Shown here piece after piece: positions 648 through 31,087 of a stretch of 32,000 nucleotides of DNA. Both the position numbers and the translations under genes were made by a program. Below the pieces are notes generated by a model. That model was not told the origin of the DNA, made no database searches, and saw nothing but the letters and a program-made list of their open reading frames with translations. The DNA lies in contig NC_010814.1 of the NCBI RefSeq assembly GCF_000020385.1, forward strand, positions 60,001 through 92,000, given 5' to 3'. Each line of letters starts with the position of its first letter. Positions within the stretch are counted from its first letter, which is position 1. Source of the stretch: Trichlorobacter lovleyi SZ. GTDB taxonomy: Bacteria > Desulfobacterota > Desulfuromonadia > Geobacterales > Pseudopelobacteraceae.

Positions 648-1232
648 TTACTGCTGCTGCAGCTCCTGCCACCTGAAGCAGTCAACGGTATGGTCATTCA
701 CCATCCCCACCGCCTGCATCATGGCATAGCAGATGGTACTGCCCACAAAGCGGAAACCGTGCTTTTTCAGGTCACGGCTCAGGCTATCGGAAACCGCTGT
801 GCTGGCAGGCACCTCCTTGATGCTGCGCCAGCTGTTCTGGATCGGTCTGCCATCCACAAAACGCCACATATAGGCATCAAAGGAACCAAACTGCTCCTGC
901 ACCTGCAAAAAGGCGCGGGCATTGCTGATGGCTGATGCCACCTTCAGGCGGTTGCGTACAATACCGGGGTTTAGCAGCAGCTCTGCAACCTTCTGCTCAT
1001 CAAAGCGGGCCACCACAGTTGGATCAAAGTTCTCAAAAACAGTTCGATAGGCTGCCCGTTTACGCAGAATCGTGATCCAGGACAGTCCGGCCTGGGCCCC
1101 CTCCAGGATCAGGAACTCAAACAGCAGCCGGTCATCGTGCACCGGCACACCCCACTCAAGGTCGTGGTAGTCGCGGTAAAGCGGGTCACTGCCTGCCCAG
1201 GCGCAGCGGGTTGGTTGGCTGTTGGTGGTCAT
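648..1232 (-). CDS. tag: DNA-3-methyladenine glycosylase I
   Basis: 194-aa ORF with typical Tag signatures: YHD.EWG.P, ILEG.QAGLSW.TIL.KR, and a C-terminal CYAMMQAVGMVNDH..C. GAGG lies 5 nt upstream of the ATG. Confidence 0.93.
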   Translation of the reverse strand: MTTNSQPTRCAWAGSDPLYRDYHDLEWGVPVHDDRLLFEFLILEGAQAGLSWITILRKRAAYRTVFENFDPTVVARFDEQKVAELLLNPGIVRNRLKVASAISNARAFLQVQEQFGSFDAYMWRFVDGRPIQNSWRSIKEVPASTAVSDSLSRDLKKHGFRFVGSTICYAMMQAVGMVNDHTVDCFRWQELQQQ

Positions 1233-1252
1233 GGGAACCTCATGGGGGAACG

Positions 1253-1376
1253 GTTTAACGGGTTGCCGCTGAGCCGCGAGCGGTGTTGCTAGGCTAACCT
1301 GCCAACGGACGACCGAGAAACAGGTGAAATGCAGCGCACAGTACGCCGGTCCGAGTTGATTGAGCCGTTAGGGATT
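1253..1376 (-). repeat. Possible attC-like junction downstream of hicB (inverse-core-like CCCTAAC ... CCCGTTAAAC)
   Basis: Read on the minus strand, CCAATCCCTAACGG (rc of 1365-1378) begins 19-23 nt after the hicB stop. CCCGTTAAAC (rc of 1253-1262) lies just before the tag RBS. Only TAACGG/CCGTTA pair clearly and the internal pairing is poor. Confidence 0.3.
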
Positions 1377-1395
1377 GGATAGATTGAGTAGCTGA

Positions 1396-1722
1396 TTATG
1401 AAGCATGTGCCAGAACGTCAGACGCCCACTGGTTTATACTTACGCCATGAGCCTGCGCCATCATGGCTGCCCGAGCGTGGACTTCTGGTGGTACACGCAG
1501 CATGAGCTTGCCGGAGTACGGTTTTTGTGGTGCTCTTCCAACTCTTTCACAGGTTGCAAGATAGTCGTCAACTGCCTCCTCAAACGCTGCTCTCAGTTCT
1601 TTCACGGTTTCCGCATGGAAGCCGATAACATCTTTGATGCCGGCAATATGCCCGATAAAACATGCATCTTCGTCGCTATATTCAATTTTTGCAGCATAGC
1701 CCTTGAATGTCATTGTGCTCAT
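1396..1722 (-). CDS. hicB: HicB-family antitoxin
   Basis: 108 aa. N-terminal HicB fold pattern (FKGY.A.IEYSDED..F.G.I.GI.D.I.FH) and C-terminal RHH-like tail (L.LRVP.E.H..A...A...G.S.N.W). Its start overlaps the hicA stop as ATGA. Confidence 0.9.
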   Translation of the reverse strand: MSTMTFKGYAAKIEYSDEDACFIGHIAGIKDVIGFHAETVKELRAAFEEAVDDYLATCERVGRAPQKPYSGKLMLRVPPEVHARAAMMAQAHGVSINQWASDVLAHAS

Positions 1723-1973
1723 GGTTTTACTCCTGCGTTCTCCAGGAACGCCCTTGCATCTTTAACTTGATATGGTTTGGCCTCTTTTGCAGGGTGCGGG
1801 CGATGAAAAGTACCAATTATGCCGTTTAGCTCAAACCTGACCCTTGAACCGTTGCCTTCAATTGTTTGTGCACCGAGTGCAACGAACAATGATTCAATTT
1901 TTCTCCATTCCAAAGTTGCTGGAACAGGAAGTGAAAAAATAGCAAGCAGTGTGCTACGGTGAGATTTATTCAT
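1719..1973 (-). CDS. hicA: HicA-family mRNA-interferase toxin
   Basis: 84 aa with the pattern W..IE.L...LG......GS.V.F.....I..FHRPHP.KE. It lies upstream of and overlaps hicB by 4 nt, the canonical hicA-hicB order. Confidence 0.85.
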   Translation of the reverse strand: MNKSHRSTLLAIFSLPVPATLEWRKIESLFVALGAQTIEGNGSRVRFELNGIIGTFHRPHPAKEAKPYQVKDARAFLENAGVKP

Positions 1974-2007
1974 GAATTAAGGTTACCAAAGTGTCTATAG
2001 GAGTGCA

Positions 2008-2020
2008 ATCAAATATTGAT
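2008..2020 (-). promoter_or_regulatory. Candidate HicB operator palindrome ATCAAATATTGAT
   Basis: 13-bp palindrome (ATCAA-ATA-TTGAT) 35-47 nt upstream of the hicA ATG. The position suits antitoxin autoregulation. It is short and sits in AT-rich DNA. Confidence 0.3.
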
Positions 2021-2035
2021 ATCATTGTTTTGAAT

Positions 2036-2093
2036 CCCTAACGGGGCTGAGGCTGACCGGCATGTTTTAGGCCGGTCTTGGCGCAGGTTGGAC
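2036..2093 (-). repeat. 58-bp attC/59-be-like imperfect palindrome (element B) downstream of the AbiGi-like gene
   Basis: The minus strand reads GTCCAAC-ctgcgccaa-GACCGGC-ctaaaacat-GCCGGTC-agcctcag-CCCCGTTAGGG. GTCCAAC fits RYYYAAC exactly and starts 12 nt after the AbiGi stop. The 7-bp stem is 2055-2061/2071-2077. Confidence 0.55.
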
Positions 2094-2104
2094 AACATTC
2101 TTTT

Positions 2105-2902
2105 TTAAAAGTCTTTTCTTATTTGTTCCATCGTAATGATTCTAGTTGTTAATAAATCAATATCATCTTTGGAATATTTTGCTTTTATATATCTGAGCTT
2201 TTTTATAAAGTCTAAGACTTCTGTCTCACTGTCTAGGATGATATATTTTATGTCGCTTGGGGAAAATGATAGTTTGAATTGTTGTAGCTTTGTATTGTTA
2301 TAGTTTCGTATATCGTCGGCAGTAAATTCTTCTTTAGTCAATGAAGGTTTAAACTTATATTGCAGCATAGAATCAAGAGATGGTACATATCTCCACTCCC
2401 TTTCATCGTAAAACCTTACACCATCAACATATTTACCATTTCTCCACAGGGTTCCTTCATAAGGCTTGGACATAAATAAAAACAGTTCTAAATAAACCGC
2501 AATAAAGTCAAGAGTGGCTGGTTTTATTGAATTTAAATCTATGAGCTTACCAACGCTTTCATGATAGCTACCACGTAAATAGCCAGCAGTGGTGGCTTTT
2601 TCATAGGTATACAAAACAGGCGATATGCCTTTTGACTTCCCCCAATCTTTACTCAATCCAATGGCATAATTACCATAATTCTTTGCATGATTTCGTATGC
2701 TTGACAGTGGAATATCACAAAAACATACCATTGGTATTGCTCTTTCGCATAAATGAGGCAGACGATTGTGTTTAGAATTGAACATGGAATGATCTTCTAA
2801 GCAATATCGCGGATAAAACTCATTTACAAGTATACTCTCAAGGATTGATAAGCTGCTTGTGTAATGAAATAAGGTATCTGCACTTATAGGATTATAGTCC
2901 AT
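2105..2902 (-). CDS. AbiGi-family abortive-infection protein (solo, no AbiGii partner)
   Basis: 265 aa. N-terminus ...ADTLFHYTSSLSILESILVNEFYPRYCLED..., plus CFCDIPLS and YDEREWRY motifs as I recall for the AbiGi family. Very AT-rich (about 30-35% GC by eye) against about 60% in the flanks. Confidence 0.7.
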   Translation of the reverse strand: MDYNPISADTLFHYTSSLSILESILVNEFYPRYCLEDHSMFNSKHNRLPHLCERAIPMVCFCDIPLSSIRNHAKNYGNYAIGLSKDWGKSKGISPVLYTYEKATTAGYLRGSYHESVGKLIDLNSIKPATLDFIAVYLELFLFMSKPYEGTLWRNGKYVDGVRFYDEREWRYVPSLDSMLQYKFKPSLTKEEFTADDIRNYNNTKLQQFKLSFSPSDIKYIILDSETEVLDFIKKLRYIKAKYSKDDIDLLTTRIITMEQIRKDF

Positions 2903-2991
2903 TGGTAACCCACATAAATATTGATGATATTTTTGTATAATTTCGAAAAAGCAGTTTTATCAGTTGTTCAACTCGTTAATCTGCGGTTTCC

Positions 2992-3019
2992 CGATATGCG
3001 TAACTTGTTACCTATATCG
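2992..3019. repeat. 28-bp imperfect palindrome CGATAT-gc-GTAAC-tt-GTTAC-ct-ATATCG upstream of the AbiGi unit
   Basis: Read directly from the sequence. It lies 19 nt beyond the GTTCAAC box (2966-2972), the same relative position as the GC palindromes at the other two cargo genes. Confidence 0.4.
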
Positions 3020-3331
3020 GCTACTTGTTCCTCATATAAGTAACCACCCAGCCAGCTCAAAAATCCATCAGCGCTGCAAATATTCAATCGCAGAATCAGC
3101 GGGTTATCCGTGTTTATGTAAATTGTCAATTCAATTTACAATTTGCACAACAGGGTCAACTGCCGGTAAAAAAGTGAGAAAAACAGGGGTACCACACGTC
3201 TTTATCGAGGTTGTGCATCCCATTGATTCTACTCCCAGGTCTGGAACAGAGCTTCTCGGTTCAAAACCGCTCAGCCTTCATTCATCGGGGCAGAAACCGT
3301 ACTGGTAATCACTGGGGCACACTGCACAAAC

Positions 3332-3763
3332 CTAATCCGTGATTTCCACGTAGCCCCACCATTGGTCTGTGGTGGTGAATATGTTGCATTTGATGTTGGG
3401 CGGACAGGTACTGGTGGAAAATCTTACCGCAGGGGCAGAGGATTGCGTGCCTCCAAAGTAACGGCAGGTGCACTCGGGTGCCGTGCCGTGTTTAAACTTG
3501 AATGTGCCATTGCACATACCGGCAGTGGTCGTAAATTTAGTGTTTGCCTGACTGTTGGGGGGGATCGTGCAGGGGCCGTTTTCGCTGGTACATGCGCCAG
3601 TGAACCATACATTGCCATGACCGGCATCCACGGTAATAGTTACGGGCTGGCTTGAGCTGTTTTTAACCGCACGATTCCAGCTTTCACCCCAGGCATTGGA
3701 GAAGCTGATAAAGAAAAGGCTTAAAAACAGAAGCACTGTCCGCCGTTGCCATTGTGTATTCAT
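3332..3763 (-). CDS. Secreted Cys-rich small protein (143 aa) if translated from the internal ATG
   Basis: The ATG at 3763-3761 is preceded by AAGGAG (rc of 3772-3777) at 8-nt spacing. The N-terminus MNTQWQRRTVLLFLSLFFISFSNAWG is a classical Sec signal peptide. The mature part has 7 Cys and no family I recognise. Confidence 0.55.
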   Translation of the reverse strand: MNTQWQRRTVLLFLSLFFISFSNAWGESWNRAVKNSSSQPVTITVDAGHGNVWFTGACTSENGPCTIPPNSQANTKFTTTAGMCNGTFKFKHGTAPECTCRYFGGTQSSAPAVRFSTSTCPPNIKCNIFTTTDQWWGYVEITD

Positions 3764-5194
3764 CTTTAGATCTCCTTGCTGTATGGGATAACGAGCGACT
3801 GCTGAGATTCCACCTCTTGCATTGGCGTGTGAAATCTCCAGGTCATTGACCTGAACAAAGGCCGGTACCACGATCGCAGTGGGGTTACGGGCGCCATAAC
3901 TACTGGAGGTGTTACTGACGACCTGGGTTTGGGAGAGCCAGGCCAGCCTGTTACCAAATATATCCAGCAGGCTTTGGGTGATGCGCACATTGTAGGGCAC
4001 GACCACGGAGCCCTCTTTGGTGAGCAGCAACGCGCCAAAGCGCGAACTGGCCGTGATCAGCCCTGTGGAGGGGTTGACGATATTCAGGTAATGCAAGGAG
4101 GGAATGTACAGCAGGTCATTGCTGTGGGGCAGGTCAACCAGTTCTTTGAGCGTGCTGACCTGCGTGTTACCACCGGCCAGTACAAGGCTCTTGTGCATGA
4201 CCGTGTGCCCGGTGGGTGCGGTGCCAAACTCATCCGCATCATCCTGGGACCAGGTGAATGACCGGAACACCCCGTTGGCAAAGATCGGGAACGGTTTGCG
4301 CGGCATGCCCATGAAATCGCGCTGAAACGGGAATGTGTCCAGACAGGTGGGATCATCGCTCAGGGTAAACCGGCTTGATAAAACCTTTTGGCCGACCTGA
4401 TCCCCGGTTATGAAGGAAAACCCGCGTTTCATGGAGCCGCCGTCAAAACCGATGAAGTTCATAATGTCAATCAGTTCCGCAATGGCAGCAGAGCCGAACA
4501 CGACATCATACCTGCCCAGCGCTAGCTGACAGGGCGTATCCTGTTGGTACTGCTCCAGCAGGAAGGCCAGGTCACGGTGCAGCGCGGACGGGTCCAGGTC
4601 AGTTATTTGCCGGGCCGACTGCTCGGCCAGCAGTTCCCATTTGCGGGTGGCATGCGACAGGACAATGCTGATCTGCGCATCCGTGGTCTTGAAATACTGG
4701 CAGTGTTCCGAACGGGTGGTGATCTGCGCAAGGGTGGTCACACCAGTGGAAAAAATCCCGGAAAGCGTGATCTCATCCGCTTCAAGTCCTGCCACAGCCT
4801 GATTGAAAAACTCCAGGCGTGCCGCATTGGTGATCCCGGCCAGGCCGGCATCAAAGCCGCTTTCATCAATAAATGTTTCTGAAAAGGCCGGCATGGTGGG
4901 CTGGTAGTCCAGCGCCTGAGCATGCTTGACCATCTCTGCAGCACGATCCACCCCCTGCCTCATCTCCGCCATATTGCCCAAGGCGGTGATCAGTTCAAAG
5001 CTGGCCCGTTTGCGCCCTTCATAGGCGGTGATCTCCAGACGCAGAAGATGTTCGTTGGTGTTGAGCGAAATGGCCGAGTTGGCGCACCGCATCAGACAGC
5101 TCTCTTCCTCGTGCAGGAAGAACGCGGCATCAATCTGTTTTGCAAGCGCATAGGTGCGCAGGTCGTGCAAGGTTTGCAGAATCTGTTCCTTCAC
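3332..5194 (-). CDS. PmbA/TldE-family metallopeptidase-like protein whose ORF lacks a stop and continues in frame into a signal-peptide/Cys-rich module
   Basis: 620-aa ORF. GTG start at 5194 lies 2 nt after the tldD stop, with AGGAGAG upstream. Residues 1 to about 459 look like the TldD/PmbA family without HExxxH. An 18-aa linker (RGGISAVARYPIQQGDLK) and the module below follow. Confidence 0.8.
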   Translation of the reverse strand: MKEQILQTLHDLRTYALAKQIDAAFFLHEEESCLMRCANSAISLNTNEHLLRLEITAYEGRKRASFELITALGNMAEMRQGVDRAAEMVKHAQALDYQPTMPAFSETFIDESGFDAGLAGITNAARLEFFNQAVAGLEADEITLSGIFSTGVTTLAQITTRSEHCQYFKTTDAQISIVLSHATRKWELLAEQSARQITDLDPSALHRDLAFLLEQYQQDTPCQLALGRYDVVFGSAAIAELIDIMNFIGFDGGSMKRGFSFITGDQVGQKVLSSRFTLSDDPTCLDTFPFQRDFMGMPRKPFPIFANGVFRSFTWSQDDADEFGTAPTGHTVMHKSLVLAGGNTQVSTLKELVDLPHSNDLLYIPSLHYLNIVNPSTGLITASSRFGALLLTKEGSVVVPYNVRITQSLLDIFGNRLAWLSQTQVVSNTSSSYGARNPTAIVVPAFVQVNDLEISHANARGGISAVARYPIQQGDLKMNTQWQRRTVLLFLSLFFISFSNAWGESWNRAVKNSSSQPVTITVDAGHGNVWFTGACTSENGPCTIPPNSQANTKFTTTAGMCNGTFKFKHGTAPECTCRYFGGTQSSAPAVRFSTSTCPPNIKCNIFTTTDQWWGYVEITD

Positions 5195-7384: not shown

Positions 7385-8578
7385 TTATGCAGGGCAGCCC
7401 ATTTCAGCGCCTGCAACAAACACCTGATCAAGCAGCCTCAGGCAGGTATCCACCTCATCCGCGCTTACATTCAGGGCCGGCATGAAGCGCAGGGTATCGG
7501 GCCGGGCGGCATTGATAATCAGGCCAAGCTCACGGGCGGCCTCGGTAACGGCATCCCCGTTATTGGCCGGAAGTGCCAGGGCCTGCAGCAGTCCGCTGCC
7601 CCGAACCTCGCCCAGGCCATGCCGTGTGGAGAGCTTCCGCAGCCCATTGGCCAGCTGCACCCCTCTCTCACGGACCTGTTCCAGAAAACCGGGCTGCAGC
7701 ATGGCTTCCAGCACAGCACAGCCAACCGCAGCCATCAGCGGATTACCATTGTAGGTGCCGCCCTGGTCACCCGGTTCAAAACAGCAGACCGCCTCCTTGG
7801 CCAGCAGGGCAGCCAAAGGGACCCCGCCGCCGATCCCCTTGCCCAGGCTCATGATATCCGGCTCTACTCCGGCCTGCTGGTATGCAAACAGTGAGCCGAG
7901 CCGCCCCATGCCGGTCTGGACCTCATCAAAGATCAGCAGCAGCTGGTGCTGATCAGCCAACTGCCGCAGACCCTGCAGAAAGAGTTGACTGGCCGGGATC
8001 ACCCCGGCCTCGCCCTGCACCGGTTCCAGCATGATCGCCACCGTACGCTCTGAAATGGCCGCTGTTACCGCCTCAAGGTCATTCAGTCCTACCTTGATGA
8101 AGCCGGGCACCTTGGGCTCGAACAGCCCCTGCCAGTGCGGCTTGCCCGAGGCGGACATGGTTGCCAGGGTACGGCCATGGAAGCCGTTGACCATGGTGAT
8201 GATCTCATAGGCGCCCTGCTTGTGCAGGCTGCCCCACTTGCGCGCCAGCTTGATGGCCCCTTCATTGGCCTCTGCCCCGCTGTTGGCAAAAAAGACCCGC
8301 TCAAAGCAGCTGTTGGCGGTCAGCAGGTCAGCCAGCCGGATGGCAGGCTGATTGTAAAAGGCCGGGCTGGGGCTGATCAACTGAGCTGCCTGCTGGCTGA
8401 GGGCCTGCGTGATCACGGCTGGCGCATGCCCCAGGCAGTTGACTGCCCAGCCCTGGATAAAATCCAGGTAGCGCTTGCCATTGCTGTCTGTCAGCCACGA
8501 GCCCTGGCCTGCCACCATTACAATCGGTGGCCGTTTGGTGATGGTCATCAACGAATCAAATGCGCTGCTTTCAGACAT
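7385..8578 (-). CDS. argD: Class-III PLP aminotransferase, acetylornithine aminotransferase-like
   Basis: Motifs [30 protein letters not shown] and SLGKGIGGG (PLP lysine). Start placed at MSESS (8578) behind GGAGGAGG. The track's 45-aa N-terminal extension to 8713 crosses a terminator hairpin. The symbol is tentative because this may be a paralogue. Confidence 0.85.
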
Positions 8579-8614
8579 GGTTCCTCCTCCTTGCTGTGCC
8601 GTCTGTGGAGGGGG

Positions 8615-8649
8615 AAATAAAAAAGCCCGCCTCCATGGGAGACGGGCTT
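8615..8649 (-). terminator. Rho-independent terminator-like hairpin just upstream of the aminotransferase RBS
   Basis: The minus-strand RNA reads AAGCCCGUCUCC-CAU-GGAGGCGGGCUU followed by UUUUAUUU. The single mismatch is G-U only on the minus-strand transcript, so it is strand-specific. Confidence 0.7.
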
Positions 8650-8847
8650 GGGTAATTGGCTGTGATGAATTAAACGGACGTACCTTACTCCATTGCACCG
8701 TGCATGGTGACACCTCTGTGCGCTATGAAGGAGTGACGTCGGATCATGGTCAAGAGCTTGCCTCAAAATTCGCAGCCCTGTCAATTGTTTTCAAGATTCT
8801 TTGGCAGATCAATCACGGTTACCCCTGCAACCGTAGCAAGCCATGTG

Positions 8848-8919
8848 CGATAACGGGGCTCGGCATGACCTGCGCGGCAAGTTCTTTTTGCCGCGTCAGC
8901 GTCTATGCCGGTGTTGGAA
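8848..8919 (-). repeat. 72-bp attC/59-be-like imperfect palindrome (element D) downstream of the TIR gene
   Basis: The minus strand reads TTCCAAC-ac-CGGCAT-agacgctga-CGCGGCAA-aaagaac-TTGCCGCG-caggtc-ATGCCG-agCCCCGTTATCG. There are two paired segments with asymmetric internal bulges. The TTCCAAC box begins 13 nt after the TIR stop. Confidence 0.6.
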
Positions 8920-8931
8920 ATCTAATTCATG

Positions 8932-10086
8932 TCATAAGTTATAAGAGGCTACCGCGTGTAGATGAGGTCCGTCTTCCCTGAGATAAGACAATAACTCATA
9001 AAATGACACATCTACGCTCCATCGCCCCATGGCATAACCACTGACTTGACCTGTTGGAAAGAGGAATGTGAAGCGGTCTGCGCTGACAGTGTATGTTTTG
9101 AAATGACTAGCATCTTCACCAGCACCGTTTTTAAATGATTCGATCTGAAAATCACTCGGTGTCTCTCCAGTTCGGTGCCAGTACTCTTTCGATAGCTCAT
9201 GGATGCATATTTCACTTATCCTTTTGATAGCACCTTGAGAATCTGAAAAGAAATCGGTTAGTTCAAGCTTGCGCACTTTGTCGACGTACTCAAAATTATA
9301 TGTTACGTAATAATAATTGGGGTGGGCCGCACCTGCATAGTACAGCCCAACATCATATGTGAGACTCAGGAATCGGTCAGTGGCATGGACAATCGCGAAA
9401 TTTTCCCAACAGCCATTTACCGCAGCAGCCCCTCTGGTTTTAAAAAATTCAGGCTCCTGTTCCCATGGCTTCTGCCTTGCGTCGATCAGGTCCGCGTATG
9501 CTCTCCCTACGAACAGGGCAGACAGTTCTTTAGCGACATCGGGCTTTGATGTGGACTGAAATCTTGGATACTCGATCTCGATATTGTGACCAGGCAAACC
9601 GTCCCAGTTATCTTCTATTCTTTCCGTAAAGACATTGAAAGGACCTGCAACTACACCATGTTCCAATTCGATTGATTGCTGCTCAGATGCCAGTCTGAGT
9701 GCTGCCTTGACCTGATCCCAAGCGCCTGGAACATTAAGGTCAACGTATTGTAGCCGAGCAGCTATGTGAGTCGGTACCTCGCAAGGCTCAAGCAGCAGCG
9801 GTATTACGTAAATATCTGTAAGTTGCTTATATCTTAGGCGTTCTATCGCATCATTAGCTTCTCTCTGCACAAAGCCTCGCTTTGTCACGCTTCGCTTGCT
9901 GAGCAAAAGCACTACTACATTTGCATCGCTAAAAGCCCGCTCTATTTCCGCTTCCCAGTTCTGGCCTGGCAATAGGTGCTTAGAATCAACCCACGGGGAA
10001 ACTCCCTCTTTAGCCAGAAGTTCATAATAGTGCTCGGCACTTTCGCGGTCCTCCTTGGCATAGCTAATAAAGACTTTCAGAGCCAC
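8932..10086 (-). CDS. TIR-domain protein fused to an RsiV/PdaC-like DUF4163-DUF3298 domain
   Basis: GTG start with GGAG 5 nt upstream. N-terminal TIR pattern: KVFISYAKEDRE.A......L...GV.PWVD......G..W...I..A....NVVVLLLSKRSV.....VQRE. The C-terminal part shows IEIEYPRF.S......ELS, YYAGAAHPNYYYVTYNF....K..EL.DFF and FLFPTGQVSGYAMGRWSVDVSFYEL, matching my memory of DUF4163/DUF3298. About 45% GC. Confidence 0.75.
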   Translation of the reverse strand: MALKVFISYAKEDRESAEHYYELLAKEGVSPWVDSKHLLPGQNWEAEIERAFSDANVVVLLLSKRSVTKRGFVQREANDAIERLRYKQLTDIYVIPLLLEPCEVPTHIAARLQYVDLNVPGAWDQVKAALRLASEQQSIELEHGVVAGPFNVFTERIEDNWDGLPGHNIEIEYPRFQSTSKPDVAKELSALFVGRAYADLIDARQKPWEQEPEFFKTRGAAAVNGCWENFAIVHATDRFLSLTYDVGLYYAGAAHPNYYYVTYNFEYVDKVRKLELTDFFSDSQGAIKRISEICIHELSKEYWHRTGETPSDFQIESFKNGAGEDASHFKTYTVSADRFTFLFPTGQVSGYAMGRWSVDVSFYELLSYLREDGPHLHAVASYNL

Positions 10087-10931: not shown

Positions 10932-12152
10932 CTACTCCCTCTTTCCCAGCGTATCAACCTGTGCCAGTTGCGGGAACAACCGTATCCAGAGCCCTACCAC
11001 CAGCAAGGTGCCAATCCCACCGACCAACACCGAGGGCACCGTGCCGAACAGGGCAGCTGTGGCGCCGGACTCAAACTCGCCCAGTTGGTTGGAGGTGCCG
11101 ATAAACAGGGAGTTGACCGCACTGACCCGGCCACGCATTGCATCCGGGGTCTCGATCTGCACCAGTGAGGAACGAATCACCACGCTGATCACATCAGCCG
11201 CACCCAATACCACCAAAGCCACCAGCGAGAGCCAGAACAGCCGCGACAGGGCAAATACGATGGTGGCAATGCCAAACAGGGCCACAGCCCGGAACATGGT
11301 GCGGCCCACCCGACGCTTGAGCGGCCTGCGGGCCAGCCAGAGCGACATACCTAGGGCGCCTGCTGCCGGTGCAGAACGCAGTAGGCCCAGACCCCAGGGG
11401 CCGGTGACCAGGATATCGCGGGCATAGATCGGCAAGAGCGCCGTGGCACCGCCCAGCAAGACCGCGAACAGGTCAAGGGAGATGGCACCCAGCACCACCG
11501 GGTGTTGTTTGATAAAGGAGATGCCGGCAAACAGGGAGCGGTCACCGGTTGCCTCTGTGGTGAGGGTGTCTGACGGCCGGATGCAGGAGATCAGGATGCA
11601 GGCAGCCAGAAACAGCACGCCAATGGTGCTATAGACCGTGGTCACGCCAGCAGCGTACAACAGCCCGCCAATGGCCGGGCCCACAATGGTGGCGGTCTGG
11701 TTGGCCGAGGCAGACAGCGCCAGGGCGCGGGGCAGGTGCTCGCGCGGGACCAGACGCGGCACCAGGGCATGCATGGTGGGGTACTCAAAGGCCCGCGCAC
11801 TGCCGATCACACACATGACCGCCAGCAGGGCCTCCTTGCCAAGCCAGTGGTAATGGCTGCCAAGCACCAGCGCTGCTGCTGCCAGGGCCTCGATAAACTG
11901 GCAGGTACGGGCGATGGTGCGGCGGTCGTAGCGGTCAGCCGCATGACCTGCCACCAGGGTCAGCAGGACCATTGGCAGAAACTGGGCCAGTCCCACCAGC
12001 CCCAGGTACCAGGCGCTGCTGGTCAGGGCATACATCTGCCAGCCCACAGCCACCCCCAGCATCTGAAAGGCGATGGAGGAACCCATCCGGCCGAACAGAA
12101 ACAGGACCAGCGGCTGGGCCAGCGGGCTTTTGGTGGTATGAGCAGGCGTCAT
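10932..12152 (-). CDS. MFS transporter
   Basis: 406 aa with about 12 hydrophobic segments and the DRYDRR loop motif after TM2 that is typical of MFS. Confidence 0.85.
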   Translation of the reverse strand: MTPAHTTKSPLAQPLVLFLFGRMGSSIAFQMLGVAVGWQMYALTSSAWYLGLVGLAQFLPMVLLTLVAGHAADRYDRRTIARTCQFIEALAAAALVLGSHYHWLGKEALLAVMCVIGSARAFEYPTMHALVPRLVPREHLPRALALSASANQTATIVGPAIGGLLYAAGVTTVYSTIGVLFLAACILISCIRPSDTLTTEATGDRSLFAGISFIKQHPVVLGAISLDLFAVLLGGATALLPIYARDILVTGPWGLGLLRSAPAAGALGMSLWLARRPLKRRVGRTMFRAVALFGIATIVFALSRLFWLSLVALVVLGAADVISVVIRSSLVQIETPDAMRGRVSAVNSLFIGTSNQLGEFESGATAALFGTVPSVLVGGIGTLLVVGLWIRLFPQLAQVDTLGKRE

Positions 12153-12283
12153 AACAGGTTGGGATTGGAGCGGGGCAGGCCGTTATGACCTGCCCGCTTA
12201 CCAGGGTTGAGAAAAACGTCAAGAGGAAGACCGGCAAGGCATAGCCCACGCAACGCCTCAAACAGTCTCCGCACTGGTATTTT

Positions 12284-13450
12284 TTAGTGCAGGAACAGCC
12301 GCAGCCCGGTGTGATACATGGTCATGCCGTACTGCTGGGCTGCCACGGTCACCTCTTCATCCCGCAGGGAGCTGCCGGCATGGGCCACAAATTGGACATT
12401 GCTGCGGTTGGCGCGGTCGATGTTGTCACGGAACGGGATATAGGCATCGGATGAGAGGCAGATCCCCTGGAAACGCTGCACCCATTCCAGCCGTTCCTGG
12501 CTGCTGACCGGTTCAGGCGCCCGGGTCAGGCCGGACAGCATCTGGGCCCGCTCCGGCTCGGAAAGCTGATCCCAGAGCAGGTACTGGTCAACGATGTTGG
12601 CCTTTTCAGGCTTCTTGAGCCCATCCTTGAATGCCAGCCCCAGCACCTTGGGATGTTGCTGCAGCAGCCATTTTTCCGCCTTGTCGCAGGCCAGACGGGT
12701 GCAGTGCACACGGGATTGTTGGCCAGCCCCCATGCCGATCACTTGGCCTTCCAGGGCCAGGCAGACCGAGTTGGACTGGGTGTATTTGAGGGCAATGGTG
12801 GCCACGATCAGGGTCTCCAGTACCTCGGGTGAGAGTTCCTTGCTGGTGGTGACCGCATTCTGGAACAGCGCCTCGGTGATCTTGGTGGTGTTGCGCTGCT
12901 GACGCAGACCAAAGCCGAACAGCTCGCGGTACTCGACCCCTTCGGCCTCATAGGTGGGATCGATCTGGAAGATCAGGTAGCCGCCACCCTTTTTGGCCTT
13001 GAGGATCTCCAGCGCCTCAGGCTCAAAGCCGGGTGCGATGATCAGGTCCGAGACCTCCGTCTTCAGGACCTTGGCCAGGGAGACATCCACCACGTCGCTG
13101 ACTGCGGCCACATCGCCAAAGGAACACATCCGGTCGCCGCCCCTGGCACGGATATAGGCGTTGGCAACCGGCGAGAGCTCGCCCACGGTCAGAAACTGCG
13201 AAGCGCAGTACTCCGCGGACAGCGGACCGGACACGGCAGCACCTGCCGGGCTGGTATGCTTGAACGAGGCAGCGCCCGGCTTGCCGGTGGCAGCCTTCAG
13301 CTCGCGGGCAAGCTGCCAGGCGCCCAGGGCATCCAGGATGTTGATGTAGCTGGGGGTGCCGTTCAGGACCTTGAAGCCGGCCTGCTCCGGCAGTTCCAGG
13401 CTGGCAGGCACCTGATGGGGGTTACAACCGTACTTGAGTTCAATGTTCAT
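12284..13450 (-). CDS. AICAR formyltransferase domain protein (PurH-like, lacking the IMP cyclohydrolase/MGS domain)
   Basis: 388 aa starting directly with LKYGCNPHQ. It also has SFKHTSPAG and a C-terminal ...HTGLRLFLH as in PurH AICARFT domains. AAAGGA RBS present. Confidence 0.85.
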   Translation of the reverse strand: MNIELKYGCNPHQVPASLELPEQAGFKVLNGTPSYINILDALGAWQLARELKAATGKPGAASFKHTSPAGAAVSGPLSAEYCASQFLTVGELSPVANAYIRARGGDRMCSFGDVAAVSDVVDVSLAKVLKTEVSDLIIAPGFEPEALEILKAKKGGGYLIFQIDPTYEAEGVEYRELFGFGLRQQRNTTKITEALFQNAVTTSKELSPEVLETLIVATIALKYTQSNSVCLALEGQVIGMGAGQQSRVHCTRLACDKAEKWLLQQHPKVLGLAFKDGLKKPEKANIVDQYLLWDQLSEPERAQMLSGLTRAPEPVSSQERLEWVQRFQGICLSSDAYIPFRDNIDRANRSNVQFVAHAGSSLRDEEVTVAAQQYGMTMYHTGLRLFLH

Positions 13451-13461
13451 TATTTATCCTT

Positions 13462-14640
13462 TCAATTTTCACCCTCGGCCTCCTTGGCCAGAGGTAGCAG
13501 AATGGTAAAGGTTGTGCCGACGCCGACTTCACTTTGCACATCGATCCGGCCGCCATGCTTGTTGACCACAATATCGTATGCGATGGCCAGGCCCAGCCCG
13601 GTCCCTGTGCCCACCTCTTTGGTGGTAAAAAACGGGTCGAATATCCGCTGCAGATGCTCCGGCGCAATACCGCAACCGGTATCGCTGATGCTGATCCGGA
13701 CCAAGCCGTCCTCTTCCCGGGTCGTCAGTCTGATTTCACCCTGCTCCGCAATGGCATGGGCCGCGTTTACCAGGATGTTCAAAAATACCTGATTGAGCTG
13801 CCCCAGGTTGCACCAGACAGGCGGCAGCTGACCATAATCCCTGATCACGTTCGTTTTGTACTTCAGCTCGTTAGCGGCGATGGAGAGGGTGCTCTCCAGC
13901 CCTTCGTGGATATCGGCAGCGGCAAACTCCCCGCCATCCACCCTGGAGAAGCTCTTCAGGTCCTGCACGATCTTACGGACGCGCTGCGCCCCCTCAGATG
14001 TTTCGGCAAGCAGGTCCGGCAGATCCTGGCGAATCCGGTCGATCTTATAGGTCTGGCGCTCCCGGGCCAGCAGCGCTCTGGTTGCCGGATCGCATCCGTT
14101 CAGAAGCCTTTCATCGGCATCCAGATACGCTGACAGCTTTTCCACGTATTTGCCGAGACTTGCCAGGTTGCTGATGATGAAACCGATCGGGTTGTTGATT
14201 TCGTGGGCCACTCCGGCAGCCAATTGGCCGACGGAGGCCATTTTGTCCTGCTGGAGGAGCTGGGTCTGGGCCAGCTTCAGGTCGTCATAGGCCCGTTGCA
14301 CCTCTGCATTCCGGTCGTTCAGCTCACTCGTCCGCTCCTGTACGCGCTGCTCAAGCCCTTCATTTATCTCCTTCAATTTCAACTGATCCGATTTCTGATG
14401 CAGGATTAACCTTCCTACAAAAATCACGACCAGCAGCACCAGTATGCTGACAATAAAACCCGGCACTTCGCTCTTTATACCAAAAAACCGCATGCTTTGC
14501 TGAAACGACATCAGCATGATCATCAGGGTCAGCAGACCCATCTTCCAGCTTCTAATCCGTATCACGAGCACAATTGACCAGAGCAATGCGATCACGCGAA
14601 TCGTGATTGATAGAATGAGTTGATCGTTATAATTGAACAT
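13462..14640 (-). CDS. Membrane-bound sensor histidine kinase (no adjacent response regulator)
   Basis: N-terminal TM segments, H-box AAGVAHEINNP, N-box NILVNAAHA and G-boxes DTGCGI / GTGLGL. Start preferred at ATG 14640 rather than the TTG at 14646. Confidence 0.88.
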   Translation of the reverse strand: MFNYNDQLILSITIRVIALLWSIVLVIRIRSWKMGLLTLMIMLMSFQQSMRFFGIKSEVPGFIVSILVLLVVIFVGRLILHQKSDQLKLKEINEGLEQRVQERTSELNDRNAEVQRAYDDLKLAQTQLLQQDKMASVGQLAAGVAHEINNPIGFIISNLASLGKYVEKLSAYLDADERLLNGCDPATRALLARERQTYKIDRIRQDLPDLLAETSEGAQRVRKIVQDLKSFSRVDGGEFAAADIHEGLESTLSIAANELKYKTNVIRDYGQLPPVWCNLGQLNQVFLNILVNAAHAIAEQGEIRLTTREEDGLVRISISDTGCGIAPEHLQRIFDPFFTTKEVGTGTGLGLAIAYDIVVNKHGGRIDVQSEVGVGTTFTILLPLAKEAEGEN

Positions 14641-25930: not shown

Positions 25931-27439
25931 TCAGCGTCTTCCGCCAAACAGGCTGCCCAGTACGCCACGGATTATTGAACGACCGATCTGGCTGCCCATG
26001 GCGCGGGCCGCTGATTTTGTCAGGGCTTCAACCGCGCTTTCGCGTCCTCTGCTGTGGCCACTGCCGCCACCCAGCATATCTGCCAGCACACCGCCCAGGC
26101 CGCTGCTGCCGGAAGACGACGCAGCACCTGTCTGCGTCTGTGTATCAACTGCGTCGGCTGACTGTTTGGCTCGGGCCTTGAGGATTTCATAGGCTGATTC
26201 ACGATCAACGAGTGTATCGTAGGCACCGGCAACAAGCGACGTCTGGAGTAACCGGCTGCGCTGGTCAGCGCTGATCGGGCCGATCTGCCCCCGGGGCGGC
26301 ACCATGTAGGCACGCTCCACCACACCCGGGCGCCCTTTTTCATCAAGGCAGGAAACCAGCGCTTCTCCCACCCCCAGTTCAGTGATTACTGCAGCTTCAT
26401 CCAGGGCCGGATTGTCGCGCATGGTTTCAGCGGCAGCCTTGACCCCTTTCTGGTCGCGCACCGAGAAGGCGCGTAAGGCATGCTGGATCCGGTTGCCAAG
26501 CTGTGACAGGATTTTATCCGGCACATCAGCCGGATTCTGGGTAACAAAATAGACTCCCACCCCTTTTGAGCGGATCAACCGCACGACCTGCTCGATTTTT
26601 TCCACCAGTACCGGCGGGGCATCGCTAAACAGCAAGTGGGCTTCGTCAAAAAAGAAGACCAGCTTCGGTTTGTCAAGGTCGCCGACTTCGGGCAGATTTT
26701 CAAACAACTCAGACAGCAGCCAGAGCAACAGCGTGGCGTAAAGTTTTGGCGACTGCATCAGCTTTTCAGATGAAAGGATGTTGATGACCCCAAGCCCGCG
26801 GTCAGTCTGGAGCAGATCGGCACTATTAAGCATCGGTTCGCCGAAGATCTGCTCACCGCCTTGTGCCTCCAGGGTCAGCAGGCCGCGCTGGATGGCGCCG
26901 ATTGAGGCCGTTGATACATTGCCGTAGTCGGTGGTGAACTGTTTGGCGTTTTCACCGACAAAAGCGAGCATGGCCCGCAGATCCTTCAGGTCCAACAGTA
27001 ACAGGCCATTGTCGTCAGCCACCTTGAACACCAGGTTCAGGACGCCGCTCTGGGTTTCGTTGAGATCGAGCATACGCCCAAGCAGAAGTGGTCCCATGTC
27101 AGAGATGGTGGCCCGCACCGGATGACCATTTAAGCCGAACGGGTCCCACAGGGTAACCGGGTAGCCCTGGTGGGCAAACCCTTCAAGCTTCAAGGCCTTG
27201 ACCCGCTCGGTAACCTTGGCATTGCCGCCGCCGGGCTGTGATACGCCCGCAAGGTCACCCTTCACATCCGCCATGAAACAGGGCACGCCGAGGCTGGAGA
27301 AATGCTCGGCAAGCATCTGCAGGGTAACCGTTTTGCCGGTGCCGGTGGCGCCGGTGATCAGGCCGTGGCGGTTGGCCATCTGCGGCAGCAGCAGGATATC
27401 TGTGGTGCTGTTTTTGGCAATGAGAAGAGGTTCGGTCAT
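25931..27439 (-). CDS. HerA-like DUF853 (YjgR-type) P-loop NTPase
   Basis: Walker A GATGTGKT and Walker [12 protein letters not shown]. Gly/Ser-rich C-terminal tail typical of DUF853 proteins. Confidence 0.85.
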
Positions 27440-30118: not shown

Positions 30119-30991
30119 TTAACAATCAGTTACGACATGTTCTTGTATTTCCTCAATTGCATTTCTTGGGTTGTAAATTTCCGAATTAAATGGCCATAGA
30201 GGGTGCATCAGGGGAAATCTTGATATGTTGATTTGGGAAGGGTAGGAAGCACTTCTGAATGAAAGGTGGTTGTCGTACTGAGCTGACAAATAGTATCCTT
30301 CGTGCCCTTTCATCGCAGCAGCCTGGATATTCCCACCGACAAGTAAGTTTTGAGGATCCTCGATTTCTCTTCTTATTGCTCTTACACAAGCAATTTCCAA
30401 TGCAGTCTCGATCGGCATTCGTGGCTTACAAATCAATAACTTATTAACCTCACATAGAATAATACCCTTTATTTCGTTTTTTCTATCGCCAATAACTCCG
30501 AAATAGACACCGTGTTCATTCGGAACTTCCTCTAACGGGTATACTTCTCTAGGAGTTCCAATTTTTTCAAAAATCCTGGTTCGTCCTGAGTCATCTGCAA
30601 GCATAAATAAGTATTCAATTTCTTTGTCATAAGCAGTCCGCCAGAAGTTGTCTATAGTTTCGTCTATTATTTCGATCAGTTGATCAAATTTTGCTCCACC
30701 AAGCAATCCGATTATGACAGCTTCTAAATGTATTATGCTTTGAAGTCCAAGGGAGACTGCTCCTGCAACAGATGCAACAATGTCTCGGCGACCTCGTTTT
30801 CTATCCGACTTCATGACGTGCAGTTTGATTCCAAAATCATTTTGATGACATATTTCTGTATCTGATGGGATGTTGACAAAACCATTCTCGACATTCTTAT
30901 TCCTCACTACTGTCAGTCTTGAATCTGAGAGTGCCATGGCTTGATCATATGCTTCTCTATTAAAATGTCTGTATGAAATACAAAGCGTCAT
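30119..30991 (-). CDS. Hypothetical protein, possibly an HslV/proteasome-beta-like Ntn hydrolase (by-eye similarity only)
   Basis: 290 aa, about 40% GC. MTLCISYRH...AMALSDSRLT...IVASVAGAVSLGL...YLFMLADDSGRTRIF...VYFGVIGDRKNEIKG...EDPQNLLVGGNIQAAAM loosely parallels blocks of E. coli HslV and 20S beta subunits recalled from memory. The SD is weak. Confidence 0.6.
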   Translation of the reverse strand: MTLCISYRHFNREAYDQAMALSDSRLTVVRNKNVENGFVNIPSDTEICHQNDFGIKLHVMKSDRKRGRRDIVASVAGAVSLGLQSIIHLEAVIIGLLGGAKFDQLIEIIDETIDNFWRTAYDKEIEYLFMLADDSGRTRIFEKIGTPREVYPLEEVPNEHGVYFGVIGDRKNEIKGIILCEVNKLLICKPRMPIETALEIACVRAIRREIEDPQNLLVGGNIQAAAMKGHEGYYLSAQYDNHLSFRSASYPSQINISRFPLMHPLWPFNSEIYNPRNAIEEIQEHVVTDC

Positions 30992-31014
30992 AGTATTGTC
31001 GAGTTCCCTGAAGT

Positions 31015-31087
31015 GACCAACTAGTTATTGACCGGTTAACGCGCGCACGCGCGTGAACCGGTGATCTACCCAAATGGAATGTTTATC
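31015..31087. repeat. Conserved junction repeat, copy 2 (imperfect 34-bp GC palindrome)
   Basis: GACCAAC-tagttatt-GACCGGTTAACGCGCGCACGCGCGTGAACCGGTG-atctaCCCAAATGGAATGTTTATC. It aligns along its length with 10112-10180, with one 4-nt indel and a few substitutions. It lies between the Fic stop and the 290-aa gene start. Confidence 0.85.

Follow-up and report, generated by a model that had tools for sequence, protein, structure and literature searches.

A complete gene for a protein of 290 amino acids (aa), Glov_0092, lies near one end of a stretch of 32,000 nucleotides from Trichlorobacter (Geobacter) lovleyi SZ (NC_010814.1, positions 60,001 to 92,000; hereafter the window), and is the sole strongly AT-rich element at that end. 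The gene order at this locus in T. lovleyi is a major facilitator superfamily (MFS) transporter, a 310-aa unknown protein, a Fic protein, Glov_0092, HGD-D, BcrAD activase, YCII and a HerA_C/DUF87 ATPase. Databases label the product of Glov_0092 a 'hypothetical protein', and in our literature searches it was unmentioned. An earlier reading of the nucleotides and translated open reading frames (ORFs) by eye, the original prediction, had taken it for a divergent HslV or proteasome-beta protein in a defence-type cassette with Fic. The evidence presented here points to a hydrolase of the proteasome-like superfamily, encoded by a gene that moves alone.

The gene and its family

The ORF begins with ATG, runs for 290 codons and has a guanine-plus-cytosine (GC) content of 39.4 % (33 % at third codon positions, GC3), compared with 56.7 % in Fic upstream and 57.8 % in HGD-D downstream; the AT-rich 290-aa ORF of the original prediction was thus borne out exactly. 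The ratio of nonsynonymous to synonymous substitution (dN/dS) between Glov_0092 and its nearest homologue (P0002, with 87 % amino-acid and 86.5 % nucleotide identity) is 0.17, which implies purifying selection. Glov_0092 is therefore a genuine gene, and selection on it is purifying.

Two models of its start are on record. The original GenBank model (ACD93829.1) has 290 aa, and the RefSeq model (WP_041242810.1) has 272 aa, begins at Met19 and omits 30938-30991 (-), including an N-terminal MTLCI pentapeptide. This pentapeptide is invariant in all 29 sequences of our family alignment A1, in which Met19 is not conserved, and nucleotide homology with the nearest relative reaches 36 nt 5' of Met1 (blastn). 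Together these observations rule out Met19 as the start codon. As judged from these sequence comparisons, Met1 is the true start, the GenBank model is correct and the RefSeq model is wrong. The point is of some consequence, as a protein begun at Met19 lacks the predicted catalytic N-terminus and is unrecognisable as an N-terminal nucleophile (Ntn) hydrolase; the original prediction had hinged on Met1, and it is Met1 that the family conserves.

The family is real, very rare and set sharply apart from all others in sequence space. Among 5.8 billion proteins searched there were 31 homologous clusters, four clusters are present in nr, and an exhaustive hmmsearch of 1.84e9 representative proteins found 27 representatives, all of them members of the Glov_0092 family, with no bridge to other families. 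The hosts are Desulfuromonadota, Cyanobacteria and a Bacteroidota-type conjugative element. Scanning metagenomes with A1 matched 11 short cyanobacterial-type contigs and nothing else, and tblastn against 50,697 phage and 72,556 plasmid records yielded no homologue. In a broader alignment, A2, of 20 sequences (19 of them full-length), pairwise identity is about 28 % and only 25 of the 290 columns are at least 90 % identical.

Predicted fold

An AlphaFold2 (AF2) monomer model built from the 29-sequence alignment has a mean predicted local distance difference test score (pLDDT) of 85.6 and a predicted template modelling score (pTM) of 0.86. The order of its elements, S1-S10 and H1-H4 (with H1 at residues 79-93 and H2 at 102-117), is identical to that in an AF2 control model of a canonical beta subunit. 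When the model was compared with the Protein Data Bank (PDB) by Foldseek, 523 matches were obtained at E <= 1e-3, and the top 50 were all Anbu or 20S alpha or beta subunits. Anbu structures led (5NYG, 5NYJ, 5NYW and 5LOX; E 4.7e-9 to 1e-7, probability 1.0, template modelling (TM) score about 0.6 on the target and about 0.62 for the best match), the 20S subunits came next, and alpha subunits matched about as well as beta subunits. Against BFVD, a collection of predicted viral structures, phage proteasome-like proteins were the top matches (E 6e-8). Glov_0092 is accordingly predicted by the model to have the proteasome-type Ntn fold, an alpha-beta-beta-alpha sandwich. HslV chains were absent from the top 50 PDB matches, and as such 'Anbu-like' describes the protein better than 'HslV-like'. 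The proteasome-type fold of the original prediction is therefore supported, whereas the kinship with HslV is not: the closest structures are Anbu and 20S, and profile comparisons reveal no similarity to either HslV or beta subunits.

Sequence and profile methods gave a uniformly negative picture. Searched alone against Pfam, NCBIfam, PHROGs and PADLOC, Glov_0092 returned nothing relevant (the best Pfam match was Y_phosphatase, E 0.19), and no PADLOC-DB v2 family matched it at E <= 10. All 29 members gave only noise against Pfam; the proteasome family PF00227 was matched neither by Glov_0092 at E <= 10 nor by the other 28 members at E <= 1. Against PDB sequences, phmmer with the single protein found nothing relevant, and hmmsearch with the family profile found only noise (E about 0.6-0.8) and no proteasome match at E <= 10. 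Alignment of A1 with Escherichia coli HslV by hhalign gave a probability of 1.3 % (E 0.042 for a single comparison), and alignment with an archaeal beta profile gave 0.2 %, global and forced alignments being meaningless. The latter profile was narrow (effective number of sequences, Neff, 2.2): it held 19 archaeal sequences around the Thermoplasma acidophilum beta subunit (verified as identical to PDB 3C91_H), as the homologue search yielded Thermoplasmatota-like sequences only. The similarity that the original prediction had seen by eye is consequently statistically undemonstrable with the profiles used. The insignificant local alignment of A1 with HslV does pair the S6-S8 blocks, as that reading had done, and the order and register of its blocks match the canonical elements in two AlphaFold models (S1/Thr1, S2/Asp17, Lys33, S5/Gly47, S6-S7, S8/Gly128 and the Gly-Gly before S9). 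Similarity to peptidase family T1 and the Ntn hydrolases was thus found at the level of structure (Foldseek) but was absent at the level of profiles (hhalign and hidden Markov model (HMM) searches).

Putative active site

Catalytic positions were transferred to Glov_0092 by offset from the boundaries of DSSP elements, using as reference the AF2 model, made in the same pipeline, of a beta subunit (P0054) that is 98 % identical to that of T. acidophilum. The position of Thr1 falls on residue 2, which is Thr in 16 and Ser in 3 of the 19 full-length A2 sequences, follows an invariant Met1 and directly precedes strand S1, as does Thr1 in the control. Such alternation of Thr and Ser is expected of an Ntn nucleophile. 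The remaining positions are listed in Table 1. Given that so few columns of the family alignment are this strongly conserved, five exact transfers onto the right type of residue are far beyond chance. Both the Thr that would become residue 1 after Met removal and the possible Lys33 equivalent had been picked out in the original prediction, and the transfer supports the two assignments. Thr1 or Ser1, Asp17, Lys33 and Gly47 are common to all proteasome-like homologues (Fuchs et al., PMC8665760), and equivalents of all four are found in the Glov_0092 family. In contrast, the network of Ser129, Asp166 and Ser169 is not kept, with Asp at position 129, Asp at 166 in only some members and Val or Ile at 169; these three residues are not listed as universal in the superfamily by the same authors (PMC8665760).

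Table 1. Features of the Glov_0092 locus and residues of its product, in coordinates of the window
Feature	Position	Strand	Details
Complete gene for 290-aa proteasome-like protein	30119..30991	(-)	Glov_0092 / ACD93829.1 / UniProt B3E9G3; stop codon 30119-30121
Start codon and Thr2 codon	30986..30991	(-)	Thr2 is the predicted N-terminal nucleophile (mature Thr1) once Met1 is removed
Asp23, putative Asp/Glu17 equivalent	30923..30925	(-)	D in 20/20; last residue of S2 in both models
Lys56, putative Lys33 equivalent	30824..30826	(-)	K in 20/20; residue just before S4 in both models
Gly77, probable Gly47 (oxyanion hole) equivalent	30761..30763	(-)	G in 20/20, at end of S5; transfer falls on A78, one residue off
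Gly168-Asp169, putative Gly128-Ser129 equivalent	30485..30490	(-)	G168 20/20, D169 18/20; end of S8
Asp212, putative Asp166 equivalent			D in 14/20 A2 sequences
Val218-Gly219-Gly220, putative Ser169-Gly170-Gly171 equivalent	30332..30340	(-)	G219 and G220 20/20; position 218 V in 10, I in 10; 3-4 residues before S9 in both models
Insertion between S3 and S4, residues 32-51	30839..30898	(-)	Disordered loop (pLDDT <50 at 35-43) and extra strand 45-51
C-terminal region beyond S10, residues 240-290	30122..30274	(-)	DSSP: E242-245, E248-251, E265-267, H279-285
Conserved 36-nt leader 5' of ATG	30992..31027	(-)	Only flanking DNA common to the window and the nearest homologue (L031)
GC-rich imperfect palindrome	31031..31062	(-)	Between Fic stop codon and leader; RNA hairpin of about 13 pairs, -23.7 kcal/mol, z = -3.3 vs shuffles
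Fic gene	31105..>32000	(-)	Runs past window edge; Pfam Fic 3e-14, PADLOC SoFic 1.7e-27
AbiGi abortive-infection gene	2105..2902	(-)	PF10899, E 6.8e-82
HicA toxin gene	1719..1973	(-)	2e-11
HicB antitoxin gene	1396..1722	(-)	6e-22

It is likely, in our view, that Glov_0092 is a propeptide-less and probably catalytically competent N-terminal-Thr hydrolase of the proteasome-like (MEROPS T1/Ntn) superfamily, belonging to a small new family, that its gene is single-gene cargo and that its adjacency to Fic is incidental. In Anbu, which has no propeptide, Thr1 is exposed by removal of Met (PMC5666114). By analogy, Met1 of Glov_0092 would be removed by methionine aminopeptidase, exposing Thr2 to serve as nucleophile and general base. 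Asp23 and Lys56 would complete a triad equivalent to Thr1-Asp17-Lys33, and Gly77 would supply the oxyanion hole. Asp169 and Val or Ile218 may stand in for Ser129 and Ser169, the normal braces of the Thr1 amine. We infer that such an enzyme would act without a dedicated ATPase.

Several points weigh against this interpretation. Sequence and profile methods give no link between the family and T1 peptidases, so the homology rests on a structure predicted from 29 sequences, and the mapping of residues was drawn from DSSP element boundaries rather than from three-dimensional superposition. The equivalents of Ser129 and Ser169 are not conserved, and in work attributed to Huber et al., 2016, these residues are said to help position Thr1 in the 20S proteasome, so that the activity of Glov_0092 could be altered or lost. 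In addition, isolated proteasome subunits are usually inactive before assembly (PMC8665760).

Some of the same facts would suit a catalytically dead proteasome-fold scaffold or decoy, which like the 20S alpha subunits binds a partner rather than cleaving it: Asp and Val or Ile occupy the positions of the two serines, profile similarity to active T1 peptidases is undetectable, and Foldseek ranks alpha about equal to beta subunits. Against this stands the conservation of the site itself. Thr or Ser at position 2, Asp23, Lys56 and Gly77, the triad and oxyanion positions, are among the strictly invariant residues of a family in which pairwise identity is otherwise so low, and Thr to Ser is the sole substitution tolerated at position 2. 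Inactive alpha subunits moreover bear N-terminal helical extensions (PMC8665760), whereas the nucleophile of Glov_0092 is at position 2 with no N-terminal extension. The strict invariance of residues mapped to catalytic positions makes a dead scaffold unlikely.

The alpha-beta-beta-alpha sandwich is common to all Ntn hydrolases, and Glov_0092 might in principle belong to another class of them, acting on a small-molecule amide as a linear-amide C-N hydrolase or choloylglycine hydrolase, a class II glutamine amidotransferase or an asparaginase-type enzyme. One 'linear amide C-N hydrolase' does appear among the BFVD matches, at rank 8 (E 9e-3), and a conserved Cys4 is unusual for a T1 enzyme, as is Asp in place of Ser129. 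Enzymes of the choloylglycine-hydrolase and amidotransferase classes, however, use a Cys nucleophile, and the typical Asp and Lys sites of other Ntn classes would be expected to differ from the T1 triad positions. With Thr or Ser rather than Cys as nucleophile, with its invariant Asp and Lys falling on the T1 triad positions, and with proteasome-family chains exclusively in the top 50 PDB matches, the Glov_0092 family is most improbably of such a class.

Features particular to the family

The T1-like hydrolase proposed here carries features that distinguish it from canonical subunits. The original prediction of insertions and of a C-terminal extension of about 50 aa agrees with the model, in which residues 32-51 form an insert between S3 and S4, and residues 240-290 add extra strands and a helix (Table 1). 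The insert carries a conserved LPSNxEIxHQxD motif just before Lys56 and is deleted in the divergent homologues P0031, P0043 and P0046. In the C-terminal region R246 is near-invariant (18/20 sequences). Cys4 is nearly invariant, a FWxDAxDxxIEY segment after H2 is strongly conserved, and the family has no propeptide. The conserved insertion beside the active-site Lys and the FWxDAxDxxIEY loop would probably serve substrate specificity or assembly, and either the insertion or the C-terminal region might allow or block assembly into the stacked rings of six or seven subunits that characterise self-compartmentalising proteasome-type complexes.

Genomic context and mobility

The gene travels as single-gene cargo of variable, mobile genome regions. 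In 9 of 11 loci its GC content is below that of the flanking DNA. In T. lovleyi it lies 19 points below; there the gene alone is compositionally foreign, and the GC content of Fic is host-like. A blastn comparison of the window with the locus of the nearest homologue (L031) showed homology from 31027 to 30135 with 86.6 % identity, and the flanks beyond this are unrelated. As the sole shared flank, the 36-nt leader (Table 1) sets the 5' limit of the unit that was transferred. The original prediction of a horizontally acquired unit of about 40 % GC therefore holds for the gene itself but not for anything wider. In L031, P0002 is followed by a 369-aa ORF at 1136-2245 (+), which is without a Pfam family on record and has no counterpart in the other fetched loci.

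No recurrent family was found among 85 neighbouring ORFs from 11 larger loci in a Pfam and PADLOC scan, and no family spanned more than three loci when 92 neighbouring ORFs from 24 loci were compared all-against-all by BLAST. Those that recur are confined to close relatives, such as two Nodularia loci, and are consequently read as synteny. A conserved upstream partner was considered and rejected, as L004 and L008 have unrelated upstream neighbours. As the original prediction had stated, no AAA+ or HslU-type ATPase is adjacent to the gene in the window or the T. lovleyi contigs, and none recurs in the 11 larger loci. The HerA_C/DUF87 (YjgR-like) P-loop ATPase of 502 aa at 25931-27439 (-) (PF05872, E 6e-221) was rejected as a partner unfoldase: it has host-like GC, is 2.7 kb and three genes away, and is not near the homologues elsewhere, which makes it an unlikely partner.

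Particular attention is due to the Fic gene, which in T. lovleyi contigs encodes a full-length protein of 404 aa. This protein has the canonical Fic motif HPFLDGNGRVTR and, at its C-terminal end, a winged-helix-like region; its gene is preceded, outside the window, by that of the 310-aa protein, which has no Pfam match. Fic and Glov_0092 are same-strand neighbours 113 bp apart, T. lovleyi contigs consistently show this arrangement, and the Fic protein resembles the defence-listed SoFic. These facts could suggest a two-gene module in which Glov_0092 is a target of the Fic AMPylase, its antitoxin or a processing protease. Yet Fic was seen beside the homologue in none of 23 other loci, its GC content is far from that of Glov_0092, the homology with the nearest relative ends at the leader with unrelated DNA upstream, and Fic and Glov_0092 have a stable GC-rich hairpin between them. 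The palindrome that forms this hairpin is followed by no U-tract and was not called as an intrinsic terminator; it is probably a Fic terminator or an operator or protein-binding site, and separates Fic from Glov_0092. The module is thus largely refuted, and we regard it as very improbable. The defence-type cassette of the original prediction fares likewise: Fic is adjacent in the window, but neither it nor any other neighbour recurs, apart from the synteny of close relatives.

Away from T. lovleyi, defence, toxin-antitoxin or mobile-element genes are found near the homologue in most of the larger loci, as raw occurrences, whereas the T. lovleyi locus is mostly metabolic. In L001 the homologue P0004 is convergent with a tetratricopeptide repeat (TPR)-CHAT (caspase-like) protease at 10940-13624 (-), and Thoeris ThsA/ThsB and DpnII-type restriction-modification genes are within 10 kb; in L002 P0004 is again convergent with a large TPR-CHAT protease at 1045-4482 (-). 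An integrase is near the homologue in L003. P0009, in L004, is carried by a conjugative element that is CTnDOT-like, and the next gene downstream, at 7812-8933 (+), is a full-length match to PDC-S51 (DUF3800), a candidate defence gene (E 6e-118). The homologue adjoins relaxase and type IV coupling protein (T4CP) genes in L008, and PIN, HicB or Uma2 genes in the cyanobacterial loci L005/L016, L006 and L014.

These surroundings raise the possibility that Glov_0092 is a single-gene conflict effector, either a protease that aborts infection or acts against phages or, conversely, a factor by which a mobile element counters defence or enforces addiction. Its Thr-protease activity would be set loose against a target in the host or the phage while infection or transfer is under way. 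Such a reading bears on the biological role of the protein and is compatible with the enzymology proposed above. The lowered GC content and single-gene movement, the mobile or defence-type contexts in L001, L003, L004, L008 and cyanobacteria, and the phage-encoded proteasome-like proteins among its structural neighbours in BFVD are consistent with it. The defence-type neighbours nevertheless vary by locus, many of the PADLOC matches among them are to generic ATPase or TPR domains, the immediate neighbours in T. lovleyi besides Fic are metabolic (HGD-D, BcrAD and YCII), no PADLOC model matches the protein itself, and the phage and plasmid records hold no homologue. In our literature searches no link was found between proteasome homologues and defence. 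On balance we hold this role to be possible but rather doubtful.

The window contains a second AT-rich patch, with GC of 0.35-0.40 across about 1500-3500, which is a defence and toxin-antitoxin islet unrelated to Glov_0092. It comprises the AbiGi, HicA and HicB genes of Table 1, and no AbiGii partner of AbiGi is evident among the nearby ORFs.

Relationship to known proteasome-like proteins

Stand-alone proteasome homologues without an ATPase are already established, and include Anbu, BPH, connectase and 22 further families (PMC8665760). The original prediction, which could not place such a protein in any described system, was in this respect mistaken. Of the known systems Anbu is the best structural match. 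It shares with Glov_0092 the lack of a propeptide and of an associated AAA+ ATPase, and the presence of C-terminal elements beyond S10. Identity in the Foldseek alignments is nevertheless only 12-17 %, and there is no HMM-level link even though the PDB search included Anbu chains. The Glov_0092 family differs further in its S3/S4 insertion and in having Asp at 129 and Val or Ile at 169. The transglutaminase, ATP-grasp and Alpha-E genes of the Anbu operon are not among the 25 most frequent Pfam families of the 85 neighbouring ORFs in 11 loci, nor in the inspected gene tables of the homologues. Anbu is also widespread, with more than 3000 sequences (PMC8665760), as against the few representatives found here.

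The 20S beta subunit (PF00227; T. acidophilum 1PMA / 3C91) has the same order of S1-S10 and H1-H4 elements, and its Thr1, Asp/Glu17, Lys33, Gly47, Gly128 and Gly170 have conserved equivalents. Unlike it, the Glov_0092 family has no PF00227 match, propeptide, alpha-subunit partner, Ser129 or Ser169, and it carries two additions, the S3/S4 insertion and roughly 50 aa at the C-terminal end. HslV (ClpQ) is a bacterial Thr1 peptidase of the proteasome fold, and the block alignment of the original prediction to it follows the correct order of elements. HslV, however, is compact, with 176 aa in E. coli, and has no S12/H5 C-terminal elements (PMC8665760), and Glov_0092 has no adjacent hslU.

Fuchs, Alva & Lupas (2021) described 22 orphan proteasome-like families, namely DPH, RPC, PPH, CPH, AAH, PHI, WPH, ACC, PMI-1 to PMI-6, PHD, FC1-5, DAH and GPH (PMC8665760). 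Like Glov_0092, these are divergent and uncharacterised prokaryotic homologues that are recognisable only by fold prediction together with Thr1 or Ser1, Asp17, Lys33 and Gly47. They often have insertions, at the S3/S4 site too, C-terminal extensions, a patchy distribution and links to phages or horizontal transfer (PMC8665760). Their listed representative accessions match none of those of the Glov_0092 family. No catalogued family counted fewer than 17 nr90 sequences in the August 2020 search (PMC8665760), and of the four nr clusters of our family only that of T. lovleyi clearly predates this search, by a dating inferred from the accession series. The descriptions of several of these families also differ: CPH is compact and without insertions, RPC and PPH are without H2, and PMI-5 and PMI-6 have an H3/H4 insertion, which the Glov_0092 model does not show. 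By accessions, size, isolation and descriptions the Glov_0092 family appears not to be one of the 22.

Connectase, an archaeal ligase (PDB 6ZVZ), resembles Glov_0092 in its proteasome fold, N-terminal Thr, lack of an ATPase and insertion at the S3/S4 site by the active site, and in connectase this insertion confers sequence specificity (PMC8665760, PMC7980362). It differs in having neither H1 nor H2 (PMC8665760), both of which are present in the Glov_0092 model, and in the form of its insertion, which is two-helical rather than a disordered loop and strand. Connectase is furthermore found in methanogenic archaea only and is absent among the top Foldseek matches. As predicted from the model, then, Glov_0092 founds a new small family in a known and diverse proteasome-like superfamily, with a fold closer to Anbu than to HslV.

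Biological significance

The position of the conserved insertion beside Lys56, which is the site of the specificity element in connectase, leads us to consider, as speculation, a specific peptidase or transpeptidase. The family might be an uncatalogued twenty-third clade, a stand-alone and sequence-specific Thr1 peptidase or connectase-like transpeptidase rather than a chamber for bulk degradation. Such an enzyme would owe its specificity to the S3/S4 insertion and an altered chemistry to the Asp at 129, and would be a conflict module of one gene, with an anti-phage, anti-defence or addiction function, moved between phyla on mobile elements. We put this forward tentatively and would not expect it to hold in full.

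As ATPase-less stand-alone homologues are well documented, the finding will be interesting to the specialist rather than startling. Pfam, NCBIfam and PHROG have no label for the Glov_0092 family. In terms of enzyme diversity it is a rare clade with unusual predicted replacements, Ser129 by Asp and Ser169 by Val or Ile, and with a conserved insertion at the site that confers specificity in connectase. Since an orphan homologue has already yielded that useful ligase, a monomeric and specific Thr1 peptidase or ligase, if such it is, would be of practical interest. A role in genetic conflict, as suggested by the neighbours of the gene, is plausible, if on present evidence some way short of likely, and the crossing of phyla by single-gene cargo in mobile or defence-rich regions makes such a role directly testable.

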